A stretch of DNA of 64,000 nt, taken from an uncultured Nitrososphaeraceae archaeon. Its GTDB lineage: Archaea; Thermoproteota; Nitrososphaeria; Nitrososphaerales; Nitrososphaeraceae. The stretch is taken from NCBI GenBank assembly GCA_963765895.1, contig CAVXZB010000023.1, forward strand, positions 128,001 through 192,000, in the 5' to 3' direction. Shown here piece after piece: positions 19,276 to 42,369 of this stretch; position 1 is the first letter of the stretch, and every line of letters begins with the position of its first letter. The translations under genes were made by a program, and so were the position numbers. The notes beneath the pieces were generated by a model that had not been told where the DNA came from, ran no database searches, and saw only the letters and a list, made by a program, of their open reading frames with translations.

Positions 19276-20208
19276 TTAATGCTTGTGTAAGTGCTCATCA
19301 GTATGTATATGTGGATGTGTATGTTTCATCAAGCCATGTGAATGCAAATGATAAGCCTTACGAATGAACGCATATAAGGAACTAATACCAAATGCACCAG
19401 CCCCGAACAGGACGATTGTAGCACCAGACGCAGAATCAAAAAAGAAGCTGGTATACATACCCAGGAAGGCTGTCCCAATACCAATCACGGACGAGAGAAC
19501 AATCATCCTAAGGAAATTGTTCGTAAGCATTCTAGCAGAGATTGCTGGCGCTACGATAGCTGCGGCTAGCAAAGTTACCCCGATACTATTCATTGAGGCT
19601 ATTACAACAAGAGCAAGAACTAGTGCAAAAGCCATTTCAAGGATTTCGGTTCTTATCCCATACACTGTGGCAGTTTCGCTATCGAACGAGACAAATAATA
19701 ACCTCTTTTGGAAGAAAAAGATAAAAATGACTGTCAGTATTGAAACTAGGATAATAACTATTAGGTCTTGATCGGATATACCAAGGATGTTACCAAATAG
19801 AATAGCTTCAAAGTTCCGATGAAAGCTCTGTGCGGCAGTAATGAATAGCACTCCTATCGCAAATCCAGCTGTTGTTACGACACCAATTGCAGCATCAGCC
19901 TTTATCTTTCTGCGTCTACTAATTTCGTTTATAAGTACTGCAGATAGAAATCCCCAGATGGCTGCTCCAACGTAATAATTAAAGCCAACTACATAACTTA
20001 CTACCGCACCTCCAAATACGGCATGAGACATGCCATGACCGATGTAGCTCATGCCGCGCAACACAATATAAACTCCAAGCAGTCCACACGTGCCTCCTAC
20101 CAGCACGGCAGCAGCGATTCCCCTTGTAAAAAACTGGTACTGGAAGGGGGTTAGGACATCCATGAGTTTATCACTCCGAGGCTCGATTGTTGTAAAGCCC
20201 ACTGCCAT
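19276..20208 (-). CDS. Zn/Mn-type ABC transporter permease (ABC-3) with His-rich tail
   Basis: GHGMSHAVFGG, DAAIG, LFGNIL, ASGATIV; C-terminus HLHSHGLMKHTHPHIHTDEHLHKH. Confidence 0.92.
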   Translation of the reverse strand: MAVGFTTIEPRSDKLMDVLTPFQYQFFTRGIAAAVLVGGTCGLLGVYIVLRGMSYIGHGMSHAVFGGAVVSYVVGFNYYVGAAIWGFLSAVLINEISRRRKIKADAAIGVVTTAGFAIGVLFITAAQSFHRNFEAILFGNILGISDQDLIVIILVSILTVIFIFFFQKRLLFVSFDSETATVYGIRTEILEMAFALVLALVVIASMNSIGVTLLAAAIVAPAISARMLTNNFLRMIVLSSVIGIGTAFLGMYTSFFFDSASGATIVLFGAGAFGISSLYAFIRKAYHLHSHGLMKHTHPHIHTDEHLHKH

Positions 20209-21116
20209 TAGTGTCTACAGGTTCGGAGATCGGAATAATATCATCATTAACCAGCAAATTGTTGGCATCTACTGCCAATCCATATGTTTTTAACAGATTA
20301 TCTGATGTGAGGGATTTATTTGGCGGTCCTTCTGAAATAAGGCGCTTATTAATACACACCACCCAGGGGATACGTTTACCTAGACCAGTAACATCATGCG
20401 TAGTCAGAATTATTGTCATTCCCTTCAAGTTCAAATCAGTTAAAATGCCAAAAATTTTTTCTCGAGTATTGTAGTCTACCCCTGACGTGGGTTCGTCTAA
20501 TATCAGAATTTCTGGATTGCCTATTAACGCTCTGGCTAGAAAAACTCTTTGTTGTTCTCCTCCTGAAAGCTCTCTGATTTGTCTCTTTGCATGCTCAGCT
20601 ATTTCTAGACTGGTAAGCATTTGTTTAATTTTTTCTTTGGTATTTTTATTAAACCATGGATAAATACCCGAGCGATTCCATATGCCCATACCGACCACCT
20701 CAGTCACTGTAACTGGAAAGTTCCAATCAACGCTTTCGATCTGTGGGACGTAGCCAATCGAAAAACAAGGCGTTATCATAAAATTCTTCATAGGATCCAC
20801 CATAGATGAAATCAGTGAAGTTAAGGTAGATTTACCTGTTCTGTTGTTATTCCTATTTCTAGAGCTAAAACTGATATAACCATGCCATGGTCTATGAAGT
20901 CCTATAACAAGCTTCAAAAGAGTTGATTTCCCCGAGCCACTTGGTCCCAATAAGCCAAGGAATCTACCTTTAGGTACGTCGAGGTCTATTCCTTCAAGTA
21001 CCTGGCACATGTGGCTTATAGCCAAACTCCAGATTTCTTATTGTTAGTATAGTTTCAACCTTGCCTGGGCTCGGTTCTATCTTGTCATTATTAAAATGCG
21101 CTGGTTTATAACCCAT
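20171..21116 (-). CDS. Zn/Mn-type ABC transporter ATPase (5' end frameshifted near 21000)
   Basis: GPSGSGKST, GYVPQ, LSGGEQQR, ILDEPT. Upstream frame MGYKP...ILTIRNLEFGY from ATG at 21116. Confidence 0.9.
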
Positions 21117-35116: not shown

Positions 35117-36322
35117 ATGATTATAGGTATAATTGGTAAATCCAATGTTGGTAAATCCACTTTTTTCAATGCTGTGACAGATCTTAGTGTCCAGACTGCT
35201 AATTACCCCTTCACTACTATAGAACCAAATGTGGGCGTTGCATATATTAGGATTGAATGTGTTTGTAAAGAATTTGAAGTCCAGGACAACCCGGTCCACT
35301 CGGTTTGCATTGATGGTGTCAGATTTGTCCCAGTAAAAGTCATAGATATTGCAGGTTTAGTTCCAGGTGCTCACCTTGGCAAGGGTGTGGGGAATAAGTT
35401 CTTGGATGATTCCCGTCAAGCAGATGGGCTGATTCACGTAGTAGATGCTTCTGGATCTACAGATAGTGAAGGTAGGCCGGTCGCCTCCGGGACTGCAGAT
35501 CCCCTATATGATATTAAATTTGTGAAGGAAGAGTTTGATCGCTGGCTTTGTTCCATCGCAGGAAAAGAATGGAACAAGTTCGCAAGGGAGTCTGAAAATA
35601 AGGGGCAAAAGATTGACGTTCTACTTGCAAAAAGACTATCAGGTCTAGCCATTAACGATATGCAAATAACAAGAGCGATTCATCAGTCTAATCTAGATAA
35701 CAAGAAGCCAATTCAGTGGGACGAAGAGGACATTTTGAATTTCAGCAGAATTGTGCGAATTTTATCCAAACCAACTATAATTGCTGCAAATAAGATAGAT
35801 ATCTCTTCTACTGAAACAAATATTATGATTATGAAAGAAAAAGGACATGATAATATTATCCCCTGCGCTGCAGAAGCTGAAGTACTGCTTAGACGAGCAG
35901 CAAAGAATAAAATCTTGCATTACCTCCCAGGTGATCGTTCGTTTGAAATAAGACCGAATACTAATTTAAATGAACAACAGATAAAGGCCCTGAATACCAT
36001 TAATGTACTATTCAAAAAATATGGTTCTACTGGTGTGCAGGATGTGCTAAATAAGCTGTGCTTTGAATCATTAAAACTAATTGCTGTATTTCCTGTTGAA
36101 GACGAATTCAAGTTAACTGACAAGAAGGGAAATGTTTTACCAGATACTTATTTACTACCAGATGGATCGACGCCGAAAGACTTGGCGATGAAGATACATG
36201 CAGATCTTGCGAAAAGTTTTCTTTACGCCATTGATGCCCGAACTAAACAACGATTAGGTGCTGAGTATGTACTCAAACACAGAGACGTAATAAAATTGGT
36301 CTCTACCGCAAGTAGAAGGTAA
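35117..36322 (+). CDS. ychF: Obg-family ATPase/GTPase YchF (archaeal type)
   Basis: GKSNVGKST, NYPFTTIEPN, DIAGLV, NKID; C-terminal TGS domain. Confidence 0.93.
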   Translation: MIIGIIGKSNVGKSTFFNAVTDLSVQTANYPFTTIEPNVGVAYIRIECVCKEFEVQDNPVHSVCIDGVRFVPVKVIDIAGLVPGAHLGKGVGNKFLDDSRQADGLIHVVDASGSTDSEGRPVASGTADPLYDIKFVKEEFDRWLCSIAGKEWNKFARESENKGQKIDVLLAKRLSGLAINDMQITRAIHQSNLDNKKPIQWDEEDILNFSRIVRILSKPTIIAANKIDISSTETNIMIMKEKGHDNIIPCAAEAEVLLRRAAKNKILHYLPGDRSFEIRPNTNLNEQQIKALNTINVLFKKYGSTGVQDVLNKLCFESLKLIAVFPVEDEFKLTDKKGNVLPDTYLLPDGSTPKDLAMKIHADLAKSFLYAIDARTKQRLGAEYVLKHRDVIKLVSTASRR

Positions 36323-36328
36323 CGTTTT

Positions 36329-37348
36329 ATGTATTCGCTTGGTATAGAAAGTACTGCTCATACAATTGGATGTTCGGTGATTAAAGTCAATCCAAAGAAA
36401 TTAGAATCCGACGAAAGATGTAAGATCCTATCGGATGTTCGTGCGGTTTACAAAGCTCCAACCGGATCTGGAATCCATCCTCGCGAAGCCTCTCGACATC
36501 ATTGCGAGAAAGCCCCATATATAGTAAAAAATTCCCTCAGTGAGTCTGGAATCAAGGCTGCTGACCTAGATATGATTGCATATTCAGCAGGTCCGGGTTT
36601 GGGACCATGTCTCAGGGTCGGTGCAGTTCTTGCGCGTACCCTGGCAGCCTTTCATCATAAACCGCTTGTTCCTGTGAATCACGCCTTAGGACATATAGAA
36701 TTGAGCCTAATGCTAACCAATTCGTCCGATCCGGTGGTCCTGCTCGTCTCAGGAGGACACACAATGATTCTTGGATTTAACAACAAGAAATGGAGAGTAT
36801 TTGGTGAGACACTTGATATCACTATTGGACAGCTACTAGACCAATTTGGTAGAGCAATGGGATTTGCCTCACCATGCGGTTCGGTGATAGAGCAGCTTGC
36901 AAGTGAGTCTTCAAGGCGGTATCTCCCCTTGCCCTACATTATAAAGGGAAACGATGTTTCACTCTCTGGATTACTTACTGCAGCCATAGAACGTGGAAAA
37001 GAAAAGAATACCCTTTTGACTGATGTGTGTTACTCATTGCAGGAGACATCGTTTGCGATCCTAACAGAAGCTGTAGAAAGAGCGCTTTCATTTAGTAACA
37101 AAACGGAGGTTTTAGTTGTGGGAGGAGTAGCTGCCAATAAAAGACTCGGACAGATGCTACTGGGCGCCTGTAAGAGGTTATCAAGCAGCCTATTCATCTG
37201 CCCTATTCATTATGCTGGAGATAATGGTGCTCAGATTGCCTGGACTGGTGCAATCGACCACCTTTCAACTGGAAATAGAATCCAAGTAGAACTAGGCAGC
37301 TATTCAACAATCATGGAGATTAGACACAGTCGAGGTCACTTGGAGATA
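36329..37348 (+). CDS. kae1: KEOPS t6A synthase Kae1 (true end in another frame; frameshift near 37295)
   Basis: LGIESTAHT, GIHPRE, GPGLGPCL, NHALGHIE, VSGGHT, GGVAAN, DNGAQIA. The shifted frame gives the expected IQQSWRLDTVEVTWR* ending at 37348. Confidence 0.93.
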
Positions 37349-37362
37349 GCCGAGATAAATAT

Positions 37363-37740
37363 TCACTTACGACTGTGGTCTGACCGCTCATTTGGGTTAT
37401 TATTTCTTTCTAGGTATATTTCCTTCTGTTCTTCGATCAGCTTTACCCATTTATGGATATTAAAAACCCCGAATTTGAATGCCTTGTCATCTATTGTGGT
37501 TATTACTACTTTTTTGATTATAAATCCTTCTGATTTGGCAGAAGATATCTTGTCTAGAGGCAGATCCAAAAGGACTCCTTCAACCTTCTTTGACAATGTA
37601 GCCATCATACCTTCTGTCTTCTCAAAGATGATTCTTTGATTAGTTAGGGTAAGAATTCCATTCTTTAATCTGTCTTCTGCACAATCTTCCTGAAATACCC
37701 TTATCTCTCCCTCCTTAGGATCCGCTTCTGAAGAACTCAT
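37363..37740 (-). CDS. PH/GRAM-like small protein
   Basis: GILTLTNQRIIFE, LPLDKI, terminal WVKLI helix typical of PH folds. Confidence 0.65.
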   Translation of the reverse strand: MSSSEADPKEGEIRVFQEDCAEDRLKNGILTLTNQRIIFEKTEGMMATLSKKVEGVLLDLPLDKISSAKSEGFIIKKVVITTIDDKAFKFGVFNIHKWVKLIEEQKEIYLERNNNPNERSDHSRK

Positions 37741-38504
37741 CGGAACTATATTATTTAGGCGCGTATTATAGATTACGTAGGCCTAGTCTCACAAGTCGGA
37801 TTATAGATGATTTCTGATAAATAAAACGTGATTAGTATTAGTTTTCGATTAGGATTTCCAGTTGAGACAGTGTTAAATACAGGTATGTAATTCTAGTAGA
37901 TACCAAAATCTTCGAAATGGATTTCATAGTAATGTTTACGATACAATTATTTCCCTGTATTCTGTATTGAGGGCACGAAATGTGTTGTTAATAAGGGATA
38001 CCTCTACAGGATACAATAGCTGCTCAATGATACGGAGATAGAAAAGATGAATTTTGTGATGTTATTGATGATTGTGAGAGATAATAAATTTTCGCTCTCA
38101 TAAGAGTAACTTAGATGGATTACACGATATAACTTGAGAGTAGCAATCATATAAAGACATGAATATCACAATTGTCAATTCAATAGTTATCCAATGCTTA
38201 TTCAAACAGCTTTGGATATTGGAATAAATATGCAATAAATATGCAATAGTAGTGAATACCACCATCATTAGTAATAATTATAGTTTAGACATCATGATAT
38301 ACATTGTTACTCAGTGCGGCGCTAACGAAATTCCCTTGTCTATCTTTAGAATATATTGCTTATTTCTAACTTGATTCCTTAATATAGGTGTGAGGAAATA
38401 AATCTAAGGCCATATCCAACACTGATGCACCCCATAAGCCCCTTATTGATATAAGGCTACACTTTGTATAGTATTATTTATGAAACAAATAATCTGTAAA
38501 ATAA

Positions 38505-38762
38505 TCACGATTTAGCTTTCCCTCTTTTTCTTGTCAATAGTGCAGCATTCTTGCGCTCAATCAATCCTTGGTCGTAGCCATAATCAAAATAAATCACATT
38601 TGATGTTTCGTATTCTGGATTATCTATTTCTAATTCTTCGATACTCATTAAAGCATCAAAAGAATTAACGTAACTATGGGATTTCATTAGTAAATTCCAT
38701 CTATGTCTTGTGGCTTGTTTGGCTAGGTCTATTGTTGAAAATACACCGATTTTCATGAACAA
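38505..38762 (-). CDS. Hypothetical protein downstream of the poly-His peptide gene
   Basis: 85-aa ORF, IGVFSTIDLAK...IEELEID pattern; no family recognised. Confidence 0.4.
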   Translation of the reverse strand: MFMKIGVFSTIDLAKQATRHRWNLLMKSHSYVNSFDALMSIEELEIDNPEYETSNVIYFDYGYDQGLIERKNAALLTRKRGKAKS

Positions 38763-38785
38763 AAAATAACATAATTTTTTATTCC

Positions 38786-38800
38786 AAAAAAAGAAAAAAA
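38786..38800 (-). terminator. Archaeal oligo-U terminator of the poly-His peptide gene
   Basis: TTTTTTTCTTTTTTT on the minus strand, 60 nt after the stop. Confidence 0.55.
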
Positions 38801-38859
38801 TGGCTGCATTGTCAGCGTAGTTTATATTGATTATACTCTAGCCTACTGGGGACGTTTTT

Positions 38860-39018
38860 CTAATGGTGGCGATGATGGAAGAAGTGGTGGTGATGGTGGT
38901 GGTGGTGGTGGTCTGAATGTGCGAATGCATTGTTGGTTAGAGCAGGCGCAGTGGCTACTAGAGCTAATGCAGCTATCATTGCAAGTATGCCTATAACTGT
39001 GGTGGTTCGAGTTTTCAA
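38860..39018 (-). CDS. Secreted poly-histidine micropeptide precursor (52 aa, not in ORF track)
   Basis: Manual translation MKTRTTTVIGILAMIAALALVATAPALTNNAFA-HSDHHHHHHHHHFFHHRHH*. TTG start, TATA (TAATATATAA) 23-32 nt upstream, T-tract downstream. Confidence 0.8.
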   Translation of the reverse strand: MKTRTTTVIGILAMIAALALVATAPALTNNAFAHSDHHHHHHHHHFFHHRHH

Positions 39019-39464
39019 CTTACTACAGTATTAGATTTTGTTATATATTAGGTTAAGGTAACAAAGTAAACTGATGCAGTTACCAAATATTAGTATATTC
39101 GACAAATGTACTGCCGGTGACAAATGAGGCAATGAGTATTGTAATTTGTTTCTTTAACCCAATCTCAATCATAAGTTTCACAAGTTAAACTATAATTCGC
39201 ATTTATGATGGGATATCTTATACCTATTGTCACTGCTGTTATCAGTCTACTAGTAAAATAATTTACAGTCAAATACTCCTAACGATATACGTCAACCTAT
39301 GTGTAAGCAAATTACTGTATAGAACATGAGATATCCCAAGAACCGATAGAGAGGACAAATGCATGTTTTCACAGGACTGAATCCGCTCTAAACTCAACAG
39401 TTTGGACCATATAAAATACTATCTACAATGGTTACTTAGCTAGAAATTGTAGGCGACCGTTGTA

Positions 39465-39521
39465 GAATTCAGCCGTCTTAGGGGATGATACTCACCTACC
39501 TATGATATCTCGGCTGAATTC
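39465..39521. other. Long stem-loop 1
   Basis: Perfect 11-bp IR GAATTCAGCCG/CGGCTGAATTC with further inner pairing TAGG/CCTA, GG/CC, TGA/TCA. Confidence 0.7.
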
Positions 39522-39635
39522 GATTTAACGATCGGCTGCTGATTGACAGTCAATATTATAGAGATGGGGTTGGTATTATACATTAGATAACATAGTTAAA
39601 TTTAGATAAATAACATCTTCGTCACAATTATATTT

Positions 39636-39704
39636 TGGCCGTTGGCAAATTGCGGTCAAGGTTTCTACGTGGTGGTGGTACTTGATTGCAAGATCCAACG
39701 GCCA
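39636..39704 (+). ncRNA. Long stem-loop 2, candidate small RNA
   Basis: TGGCCGTTGG/CCAACGGCCA plus TTGCGGTCAAG/CTTGATTGCAA (two G-U pairs, valid only on +). The structure is seen; RNA status is inferred. Confidence 0.4.
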
Positions 39705-40277
39705 CTTCAATTGTTAATTTAAAATTATACAAAGAATATTCAAATAAATTTCTAAATTTGTACAAACTAGCGAACCTAAGATTTTCGATGCTTATGCTAT
39801 CTCCAAATTATCAAAAATGCCGCCAAAATTCATCCAAATGCAAGGAGATGTGGTGCTGAATCAAAATCTGCCACATGTAAGTCTTATCTAGAGATAGCAT
39901 AATCAACATACTTGTAAAACACACAACAGTAGTAAGAGATTCTGCTGCGTCATCCAGAGTGTGAGAGTTTATCTGTGAAGGCAGCTAGTATAAATTGAAT
40001 TTAGAATCTAACAAAAGTTAAACTTAGCCGAAATATTGATCTGGTTTTTATAGTTTATAAGATGCACTTCTGACGGCGTTGGAAAAAGGATAATATTATC
40101 AGACAGAGTTGATAGTTCCTTGATAGGTTTATCCTCACATAGAATAAAACATGGAACTGCGAGACCTGAGAGGTTCTGAATATAAATTAGTTGGCGGATC
40201 AAGTATAGCATGACTATTTGAAATCTTAATCTAGAAACACAATAATTATACATCAGAAAAATCGTCACTATTCATAT

Positions 40278-40892
40278 TTGAATATGGATTATCTAGAGCA
40301 TCTCCGTAATTCAGACCATCGCCTGGCTAAAATTATCGCTGTGATTGGATCATATTCTATAAAGAAAAAGAATGATTCATTTCAAGCATTGATAGAATCT
40401 ATAATCTATCAGCAACTAAATGGACGTGCTGCTGACACCATTTGCGGGAGATTATATGCATATTACGAAAATTCGATCCCAACGCCAAAACAAATTATTT
40501 CGAGCTCAGACAATGAACTAAGAACTCAAGTAGGTCTATCAGGAATGAAAATTATGTATCTAAAGGATCTTGCAACTCATATTCTAGACAATAGGTTGAG
40601 CTTGTTTGACCTACCTAGAATGGAAGATGGAGAAATAATTAGTAGGTTAACAAGAGTAAAAGGCATAGGAAGATGGACAGCAGAAATGTATTTGATGTTC
40701 TTTCTGGGTAGGGAAGATGTATTACCTGTAACTGATCTAGGTTTGAGAAATGCCATGAAAAGAATTTATTCGTTAGATAAGCTTCCTACACCTATGAAGA
40801 TGATTGAGATAGCCAACCCCTGGAGACCATATAGGAGTGTTGCCACGTGGTATTTGTGGAAGTCTTTATCTAATTTTAATAGTATTGGTTAA
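40278..40892 (+). CDS. DNA-3-methyladenine glycosylase (AlkA/HhH-GPD family)
   Basis: SIIYQQL, VKGIGRWTAEM, DVLPVTDLG, WRPYRSVA. Confidence 0.93.
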   Translation: MNMDYLEHLRNSDHRLAKIIAVIGSYSIKKKNDSFQALIESIIYQQLNGRAADTICGRLYAYYENSIPTPKQIISSSDNELRTQVGLSGMKIMYLKDLATHILDNRLSLFDLPRMEDGEIISRLTRVKGIGRWTAEMYLMFFLGREDVLPVTDLGLRNAMKRIYSLDKLPTPMKMIEIANPWRPYRSVATWYLWKSLSNFNSIG

Positions 40893-41354
40893 AGTTGAGG
40901 TGATTCGACACGGACTTAAGGGTGATTTCTAAATATTGCCAAACTTACTAAAGCTTCAAATTCCACGATATTGACTTGATTTCTATCATAATTTTTCTGT
41001 TGTATGTAAGCGACTAGTGTGGCCTGAAATTGCAAGTACAGACTGAATCCAATTGATATAAAGTCCCTGAGCCCATTGTCATGTCTATATTGCTCAGCAC
41101 GTATAAATAATAATACTAATCTCACGCTGAGCCAAATCTTAGGCTACAAACAATCATGTAAAAAAGCATATTTTTGAAATCAACATGGGATTTGTATCGG
41201 TATTATCTAATTTGAAGTGGTGCTATGTATATAAAATCATATTTGTACTAGGAATATCAAATATATATATTATTATTATAATGTTAAATGGTTAGTTACC
41301 ATTGTTAATTAATAAATAAATAGTTATTACAACATTGAAGGCACTAGAAAAACA

Positions 41355-41806
41355 ATGAATAGATTAACAACAATCTCATTTGTTGCAGTTATCGCACTTG
41401 CAGCAATACTCTTAACATCGTCCATGGCACATGTTAGCCCAGTGGTCGCAAAGAAAAGCGGAAGTACCAGCGATAAAAGTGGCAGCAGTGGAAGTAGCGG
41501 TGGCAGCAGTGGAAGTAGCGGTGGCAGCAGTGGAAGTAGTAGTAGTAGCGAGCAGTAGCTCATCTAAAAGCGACTATGATAAATTCCAGAAATGCCTCTC
41601 GGATGCCGCTTCAAGTGGGGGGTCTGCAACCAAATCACAAATAAAGACTTGCTATGGCTCAACCTATGGAACAGGTGGCAGCAGTGGAAGTAGCGGTGGC
41701 GAGCAGTGGAAGTAGCGGTGGGAGCAGTGGAAGTAGCGGTGGCAGCAGTGGAAGTAGCGGTGGCAGCAGTGGAAGTAGCGGTGGCAGCAGTGGCGCTGGA
41801 GCCTAG
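41355..41806 (+). CDS. Secreted Gly/Ser-rich protein with central two-Cys domain (frameshifts inside repeats)
   Basis: Signal peptide, (GSSGSSG)n, SDYDKFQKCLSDAA...QIKTCYGSTY, more (GSSGSSG)n, SGAGA* at 41806; T-tract at about 41870. Confidence 0.7.
41481..41793 (+). repeat. 21-bp coding tandem repeat GGCAGCAGTGGAAGTAGCGGT in two blocks
   Basis: Head-to-tail copies at about 41481-41540 and 41677-41793, with no spacers. Confidence 0.9.
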
Positions 41807-42369
41807 TGACAACACAATAACAATAGATAGCAAGATTTAGATCACAACCATAGTTTTACTATCTACACCTTTTTTGATTTCTAATTTATGCGGCCTAATA
41901 GGTAGTTTGAACGCTCTCCATCTAATCATCTTTTGTAGTTCGAAGAATAATTCAAAAATACAGAACATACTCCCGGGCTAATACAAAATTAAGGTAAACT
42001 GATATTGGTAAGATCATTGCTTGGGATATGTACAATAAGAAACTCTTAATGTCATAAATGTTAAGAAAATGATTATAAGGATTTGACAACGAGAGTGGGC
42101 ATGACCTAGACAGTTTACTATATAACGCCAACGATGAATAATGCTAATCTCAGACTATCAATTTACGTAATATCTGGATTTGTGACTAATTAATGTAAAT
42201 AGACTTTACAGACCTTCTTTTAATAAATATCACGCTGAAATGTGAATAATATGAGATGTGATACGGGTTGGATTATGCTATTTATCTTGTCTTACCGCAA
42301 AAAATCGACAAAATAAAAACGAAAATATTTTTATGTGGAAACTGAAAAGTACAACGCAGTACCAAAGAA

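Follow-up and report, generated by a model that had tools for sequence, protein, structure and literature searches.

The minus-strand stretch 38860-39018 of the window (the whole 64,000-nucleotide piece of DNA analysed here, C23:128001-192000 in the genome of an uncultured Nitrososphaeraceae archaeon) is a real, conserved gene for a predicted exported poly-histidine (poly-His) micropeptide. There is about an even chance that this peptide serves as an extracellular metal binder, buffer or sponge, as the composition of its tail would suggest. An earlier note on this DNA, drawn up from the sequence alone, had described a 52-codon poly-His micropeptide gene at this place; the open reading frame (ORF), the signal and the His tail were found as described. 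Promoter, Sec-type signal, Ala-Phe-Ala site, N-terminal His, His tail and T-tract all stood as given there, while the TTG start had been omitted. The account also lacked the roughly 15 paralogs, the aromatic-rich tails and a palindrome upstream of the gene. The elements of the gene are as follows.

38860..39018, minus strand: coding sequence of the 52-residue precursor, 52 codons plus stop; TTG initiation codon at 39018-39016, TAG stop at 38862-38860; frame kept in same-genus loci
38920..39018, minus strand: predicted signal peptide, residues 1-33, with Lys/Arg in the n-region, then a hydrophobic core and a Pro; a polar c-region precedes the Ala-Phe-Ala at -3 to -1
38863..38919, minus strand: predicted mature peptide of 19 residues, 14 of them His, starting with His-Ser-Asp-His and containing an internal Phe-Phe
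39041..39050, minus strand: TATA-like box, its centre about 27 nt before the start codon; conserved in five related loci
38786..38800, minus strand: oligo-T tract T7-C-T7, a likely archaeal terminator about 60 nt past the stop; T-tracts stand at the equal place in related loci
39092..39112, minus strand: imperfect palindrome of 21 bp that lies 42-62 nt before the TATA box; kept in four of five related loci

The precursor begins with Lys2 and Arg4, continues with the hydrophobic core, Pro25 and a polar stretch, and reaches Ala-Phe-Ala at residues 31-33. It thus has the charged n-region, the h-region, the c-region and the small residues at -3 and -1 that characterize a Sec-type (class I) signal. 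In an alignment of 12 family members (A1), the Pro is invariant, both cleavage-site Ala residues are nearly invariant, and the mature start His-Ser-Asp is present in eight. A class III (type IV pilin-like) signal consists of a short charged leader that ends in Gly/Ala before a hydrophobic segment, which stays in the mature protein. This class was rejected, since there is no Gly/Ala motif between Lys/Arg and the core, and the small-residue motif sits after the core. The 19-residue tail is composed of 14 His, two Phe, and one Ser, Asp and Arg each; it contains no Cys. An amino-terminal copper- and nickel-binding (ATCUN) motif was considered and dismissed: after cleavage at Ala-Phe-Ala the third mature position is Asp, and His occupies positions 1 and 4. 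The CAC share of the His codons is 64%, compared to 29% in the long open frames of the genome, which fits an expressed gene or else growth of the repeat. The ORF on the opposite strand was discarded; it offers Gly-, Trp- and Val-run frames without any conservation logic.

All six other genomes of the same genus match the peptide gene with E-values from 1e-22 to 7e-8. The five strongest loci were read individually, and in all of them the frame is kept, along with the hydrophobic signal, Ala-Phe-Ala at the cleavage site and a short tail rich in His. Homologues that retain frame and signal, which the earlier note had named as a point to be checked, therefore exist. In four of these five loci the stop follows directly after the His tail; in G003 the frame runs a few residues past the His run and the stop lies inside the match. 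One related locus has an ATG at the exact position of the TTG. Over the first 36 codons, the ratio of non-synonymous to synonymous changes (pN/pS) was 0.00-0.50 in 15 of 15 pairwise comparisons. Third positions accounted for 11-12 of the 16-21 differences to this gene in four comparisons, and for three of five in the fifth. The signal region is under purifying selection as a protein. The length of the His tract, on the other hand, differs between orthologues. It had also been suggested that the tract might be merely the linker of a longer protein. This is ruled out: all three frames of the minus strand terminate by 38838, the closest relative shares the stop context, and the orthologues keep short tails. 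One paralog (L029, G001:C78) carries a TGA stop followed by six in-frame codons, five of them for His, and then a TAG; this TGA looks like a recent nonsense change or a possible read-through.

These data bear directly on the idea that no functional peptide is made and that the ORF is either a His-tRNA-sensing regulatory leader or a slippage-prone repeat that is open by chance. A run of His codons within a very short ORF and a tract whose length varies among relatives would agree with it, and the RNA contigs gave no support for transcription or translation. It is nevertheless very improbable, given that the non-repeat part is under purifying selection as a protein, that the ORF has its own promoter and is directly followed by a terminator, and that its His codons are a mixture of nine CAC and five CAT. 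Moreover, the downstream ORF has no Pfam match and differs between genomes, no his gene is found there, and synteny breaks at 38751. A his-operon-type leader (attenuator) in particular was excluded by the gene's own terminator, the lack of a his gene downstream and the selection on the signal part as a protein. As to the RNA, positions 36000-42000 were compared with contigs from the three metatranscriptomes X15-X17 and from the DNA run X1. The RNA contigs, which stem from relatives, cover 36000-37800, 38404-38751, 40000-41180 and 41358-41671, with no clean cover of 38814-39400. The comparison skipped the repeat 38871-38921, and the RNA gap at that place is uninformative on expression. The X16 signal at about 38764-38799 comes from a short match of low complexity whose long ends are dissimilar.

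The host genome comprises 4.9 Mb in 88 contigs, with 88% completeness and 36.8% GC, and public runs holding this stretch are soil, rhizosphere and plant metagenomes. The assumption that the host is an ammonia oxidiser was borne out by amoA in the genome and by relatives deposited as Nitrososphaeraceae. The amoA matches at C24:168102-168652 lie in three different frames, and a multicopper oxidase, a Cdc48 ATPase and a short-chain dehydrogenase are each split into adjacent ORFs. The assembly thus probably carries many indel errors; a pseudogenised amoA, notable if true, is the alternative for the three frames. The exact His count has to be taken with the caution already voiced in the earlier note, since the assembly is rich in frameshifts, the read contigs skip the repeat and tract length varies among orthologues. 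The DNA contig of run X1 ends at 38922, the edge of the repeat, such that the tract length is not spanned there. At two further places, G002:C131:2-106 and G002:C176:13-84, poly-His coding tracts stand at contig ends. Poly-His tracts probably break short-read assemblies, and members of the family are for this reason probably under-counted in metagenome-assembled genomes.

The gene is one of a family. The genome was scanned for stop-to-stop frames with at least six His in 15 residues, which were filtered for a hydrophobic 12-mer just upstream. The His threshold was passed by 93 frames, 17 of which also had the 12-mer. Thirteen read as signal peptide plus His-rich protein, namely eight micropeptides and five longer proteins; the other four (one loop of an ABC-3 permease and three doubtful frames) were discarded. 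Two members below the threshold were added from a similarity search, which gave 15 loci. Five of the eight micropeptides have at least 15 consecutive His, in runs of about 18 to 30 by eye. In the five longer paralogs, an N-terminus of the same His-rich kind leads into repeats rich in Ala, Gly and Ser or into a small domain with Cys. Reading by eye, the tails of the relatives combine His with Phe, Tyr or Trp and at times contain little else, and a paralog on contig C12 is the only one with Cys around its His run. Among 307 candidate signal peptides picked up in a crude scan, 56 had Gln and 11 had His at +1, and five of these 11 are, by reading, members of the His-rich set. The organism thus does not use His by default as first mature residue, which counts in favour of metal binding by the peptide. 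On C12, C63 and C72, three paralogous secreted proteins of 73-75 residues also have a predicted mature His1, with two Cys each.

The family is centred on one genus. The seven-residue cleavage-site motif occurs in the own genome and in three of the six other genomes of the genus. Outside it, one of 194 genomes from 17 other genera of the family Nitrososphaeraceae matched, with no hit for a reversed-pattern control; this sole match (G109) amounts to a frame of 14 residues and was judged spurious. Weaker matches that share the architecture came from a few further genera of the family. Both strands were searched for runs of eight His codons, and overlapping matches were counted, with the following outcome.

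Five genomes of the genus (own genome, G001, G002, G004 and G006): 123, 85, 116, 86 and 30 matches; controls 0-6
G005: 4 matches; controls 51
G003 (75% complete): 0 matches; controls 2
18 genomes from other genera of the family: 0-41 matches each
16 genomes from 16 other families of the order: one match, in a single genome

The abundance of His runs is accordingly centred on this Nitrososphaeraceae genus, and such runs hardly occur in the 16 further families of the order that were searched.

Databases contain little that resembles the peptide. No Pfam-A family was matched by the peptide or by the ORFs on the longer paralogs, and a word-index homologue search with the exact peptide gave no match. 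Among 1.84 billion representative proteins, a profile of the 12-member family found 14 matches at E <= 0.001. Ten of these were looked up and led to 15 cluster members: five are named "hypothetical protein [Nitrososphaeraceae archaeon]" and one "hypothetical protein [Thermoproteota archaeon]" at NCBI, two are called "hypothetical protein" at JGI, and the rest are nameless. The description of the gene as unannotated is thus correct for the exact product, which is without a word-search homologue, and has to be amended for several relatives, which are deposited as hypothetical proteins. One longer paralog has 28 database relatives that carry no Pfam domain; those with names are hypothetical proteins except for two labelled RcnA at JGI, a label that evidently rests on His content alone.

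The location of the TATA box, centred about 27 nt ahead of the start codon, implies that the mRNA is leaderless or nearly so. Promoter and terminator are conserved in related loci, as is the 3' untranslated region. The palindrome is a candidate site for a shared dimeric transcription factor. Its position upstream of the TATA box suggests that the putative regulator is probably an activator. The genome holds one further close copy with two mismatches, located on C84 at the same place relative to the TATA box of a gene for a secreted protein of 377 residues. This protein, which shares the upstream palindrome of the peptide gene, is a member of a cluster of secreted proteins of unassigned family at C84:370000-377000; several of them have a predicted mature His1, and the cluster adjoins a C2H2 zinc-finger membrane protein. 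A Pfam search at E <= 1 on the cluster downstream of this second palindrome gave nothing informative on function. A third palindrome-like site, C87:117486, has no obvious small secreted gene alongside.

If the peptide is an extracellular metal binder, its action can be pictured as follows. The precursor would be threaded through the Sec translocon with the N-terminus in and the tail out, and signal peptidase I would cut after Ala-Phe-Ala and release a peptide of about 19 residues with 14 His and a free N-terminal His. The released peptide would enter the space under the S-layer and then the soil pore water. Its many imidazoles could bind divalent transition metals (Cu, Ni, Zn, Co), and the amine and side chain of His1 together with Asp3 and His4 might form a defined N-terminal site. 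Metal would in this way be kept near the cell when scarce, and the toxicity of free ions would be blunted when metal is in excess. The conserved palindrome ahead of the TATA box would probably make expression inducible. Poly-His tags, Helicobacter Hpn, histatins and the poly-His-poly-Gly peptides of vipers bind Ni, Cu and Zn. That His richness is kept while tract length varies freely fits a capacity-type ligand and not a folded protein. A buffer or sponge is preferred to a metallophore in the strict sense (one that is released, captures metal and is taken up again), or to a siderophore-style shuttle with a dedicated importer, because no linked importer was seen in the scanned neighbourhoods.

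Whether cleaved or not, the tail is predicted to lie outside, as follows from the positive-inside rule and the charged N-terminus. It is thus conceivable that the product stays in the membrane as an uncleaved micro-protein, with a transmembrane helix and an outer His tail acting as metal antenna or accessory of a transporter, a sensor or a copper enzyme. Lys2 and Arg4 before the core would give precisely this orientation, and several metal transporters possess His-rich loops, including the ABC-3 permease of the window. We consider such an anchored form quite unlikely. The conserved, helix-breaking Pro, the polar c-region and the small residues at -3 and -1 argue for cleavage; the Pro, the polar c-region and the Ala residues of the site are found family-wide, the first mature residue is conserved, and no partner gene is consistently adjacent.

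The neighbourhoods of the paralogs lend weak support to an extracellular metal binder, at the level of the family. Six of the 15 His-rich paralogs lie within 6 kb of one of 13 loci from four families linked mostly to metal handling (five E1-E2 ATPases, three CDF, one DtxR/MntR and four multicopper oxidases). The random expectation is 0.48; none of 20,000 permutations reached six, and P(>=4) is 0.00125. The neighbours are the sole MntR/DtxR regulator present in the genome, a P1B heavy-metal ATPase accompanied by an ArsR/SmtB regulator, a CDF efflux pump, a multicopper oxidase and KdpB. A seventh paralog adjoins a GlxA-like radical copper oxidase. The adjacency of MntR and poly-His gene is in part conserved, being kept in two of five other genomes of the genus.

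Several observations weigh against metal binding as the function of the peptide. The four marker families were picked after the neighbourhoods had been seen, two paralogs share one ATPase in the count, and KdpB, which was counted as a marker, moves potassium and not a transition metal. The adjacency of MntR and poly-His gene is missing in three of the five other genomes, and the adjacency to the ATPase is kept in none of three orthologous loci examined. The gene under study is itself not among the six metal-adjacent paralogs. A Pfam scan of 17 ORFs found no metal-related gene within 6 kb of it, and the nearest metal gene, an ABC-3 Zn/Mn-type permease, is 19 kb off. Neither an importer nor a receptor was seen linked to this gene or in 11 scanned paralog regions (Pfam, 17 plus 124 ORFs), and the genome's single SBP_bac_5 protein is near no paralog. 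Translation may be poor from a TTG start when the mRNA is nearly leaderless. Finally, the aromatic-rich tails (Phe-Phe, Trp/Tyr runs) are not needed for chelation and hint at another or an added property. This unexplained aromatic content keeps two further explanations, an antimicrobial one and one based on self-assembly, alive.

According to the first, the product is an acid-activated antimicrobial or competition peptide, whose His tail becomes polycationic at the low pH generated by ammonia oxidation and inserts into the membranes of competitors with its Phe, Trp and Tyr residues. Histatins, clavanins and His/Trp-rich peptides act on membranes. The combination of a conserved signal, a mature part that varies fast in length and sequence, and many paralogs is the usual pattern of secreted effectors; the relatives P0043 and P0038 have tails of His with Trp or Tyr only, and the range is restricted to the genus. 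Against this, the tail carries almost no charge at neutral pH and lacks an amphipathic pattern, paralogs with 25-30 straight His and nothing else are unlike known membrane-active peptides, and no immunity gene, dedicated exporter or maturation enzyme is found beside the gene or in the 11 paralog neighbourhoods. An antimicrobial role appears unlikely.

The second explanation holds that the peptide is a component of the surface or matrix: the tail would self-associate by coacervation or aggregation, triggered by pH or metal, or stick to mineral, oxide, S-layer or exopolymer, and would aid attachment or biofilm formation instead of managing metals. An anchorless peptide of 19 residues would diffuse off, and neither a glycosylation sequon nor a sorting signal is present; a matrix role is improbable. 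The composition of His plus aromatic residues would suit it. The longer paralogs with Ala/Gly/Ser-rich repeats or a small Cys domain do resemble structural or matrix proteins, and another abundant small secreted Ser/Gly-rich protein is encoded 2.3 kb away. Two other ideas were set aside, namely a freely diffusing peptide as pH buffer, which would be uneconomical, and binding of haem or tetrapyrroles, for which there is nothing supporting.

Extracellular metal binding may be part of a wider scheme, in which the genus controls the speciation of Cu, Ni and Zn around its cells by unmodified, enzyme-free, Sec-exported poly-His/aromatic peptides with brace-like N-terminal sites, laid bare when the signal is cut off, and a shared palindrome switch. 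We regard this scheme as speculative and rather doubtful. If true, it would represent a counterpart of methanobactin that is encoded by genes and needs no enzymes, and no chalkophore/metallophore system would have been known from archaea before it. Ammonia-oxidising archaea rely on copper enzymes and respond sensitively to free-copper levels; to our knowledge, it has not been established how they acquire or buffer extracellular copper. A family of exported peptides of near-pure His is a concrete candidate for this task. If the peptides do bind metals, metal availability would be affected both for the nitrifiers and for their neighbours in soil. The family also illustrates how much small-gene content has been missed: the present gene has no database twin, and there are only 14 relatives among the 1.84 billion proteins.

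The statement of the earlier note that no archaeal example has been described agrees with our survey: none was found in the full-text literature on His-rich or poly-histidine peptides in ammonia-oxidising archaea, Nitrososphaera, Thaumarchaeota and archaea. The matched passages of two papers on copper physiology (PMC7785015, PMC13003922) mention no His-rich peptide or archaeal secreted ligand, and the sole passage on "secreted" among them concerns the methanobactin of methanotrophs. His-rich metal-binding peptides are known elsewhere; an exported, unmodified archaeal micropeptide family of near-pure His is a new form of them.

The Pfam-annotated genes within 6 kb of the peptide gene code for a sulfite/nitrite reductase, an Obg-like GTPase, Kae1, an HhH-GPD glycosylase and an MFS transporter with MarR. 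The closest relative (91% identity) is syntenic from 38751 to 41393. The sharp break at 38751 lies just past the terminator, and the read contigs of other strains diverge there too. Because of this break, the 85-codon ORF 38505-38762 may be the 3' remnant of a longer gene. Three other features of the window deserve mention.

19279-20214, minus strand: ABC-3 permease with a His-rich loop; the best NCBIfam match is AztB, and it is also ZnuB-like
39451..39709, no strand assigned: conserved non-coding-looking block that goes with the peptide gene at loci in three other genomes
41355-41806, plus strand: second small secreted-protein gene, with a signal ending in Ser-Met-Ala, followed by His, Ser/Gly-rich repeats and a short two-Cys segment

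The block 39451-39709 is 77-84% identical in the loci of the three other genomes, including both paralogous loci of G004. Its consensus fold consists of two long hairpins, and 12 of the 73 pairs show compensatory changes. An Rfam search of 37600-42000 gave no match except for one sub-threshold chance match. The block may be a new structured RNA or DNA element, with a putative tie to the peptide. The frame of the second secreted-protein gene breaks at about 41556 and near 41715, where the RNA contigs of relatives have indels and a very high depth of 364-644 (X15). It is probably a single highly expressed gene that is mis-framed in this assembly.

Among known systems, Hpn and Hpn-like of Helicobacter pylori are small ribosomal His-rich products. 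Their accepted role is the storage or buffering of Ni by binding to multiple imidazoles, and they are cytoplasmic and lack a signal peptide. The product described here is likewise small, ribosomal and mostly His; in contrast, it is predicted to be exported, is archaeal, has about one third of the size and shows no sequence relation. The viper poly-His-poly-Gly peptides and the histatins are animal products cut from larger precursors, with roles in protease inhibition and antifungal defence, and histatins carry ATCUN. Secreted, unmodified short His runs are common to them and to the present peptide, which has no ATCUN motif, and in some of its paralogs a His run is likewise joined to a stretch rich in Ala and Gly.

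Methanobactins and bufferins are distinguished by Cys-derived heterocycles that are made by adjacent enzymes of the MNIO/DUF692 type; methanobactin has a receptor, and the bufferin precursor has a Sec signal. Ribosomal origin, export and occurrence in organisms with copper mono-oxygenases are shared, and copper handling would be as well. Neither a Cys core in the 19-residue tail nor a maturation enzyme of the MNIO/DUF692 type in the Pfam scans of the gene's surroundings (17 ORFs) and the 11 paralog regions (124 ORFs) was found. The large extracellular scavengers, namely the zincophore Pra1 of Candida and the pneumococcal poly-histidine-triad proteins, are folded and His-rich and have a linked or co-regulated transporter. 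The archaeal product resembles them in being His-rich and, as predicted, extracellular, but it is a short peptide, and no transporter partner was seen in the scanned neighbourhoods. In the histidine brace of CopC, lytic polysaccharide mono-oxygenases and PmoB/AmoB, a folded domain holds one defined Cu(II), and the CopC type uses an N-terminal His, an Asp and a His. His1, Asp3 and His4 of the mature peptide could provide the same ligands, although this putative site would be part of an unstructured peptide with about 12 extra His.

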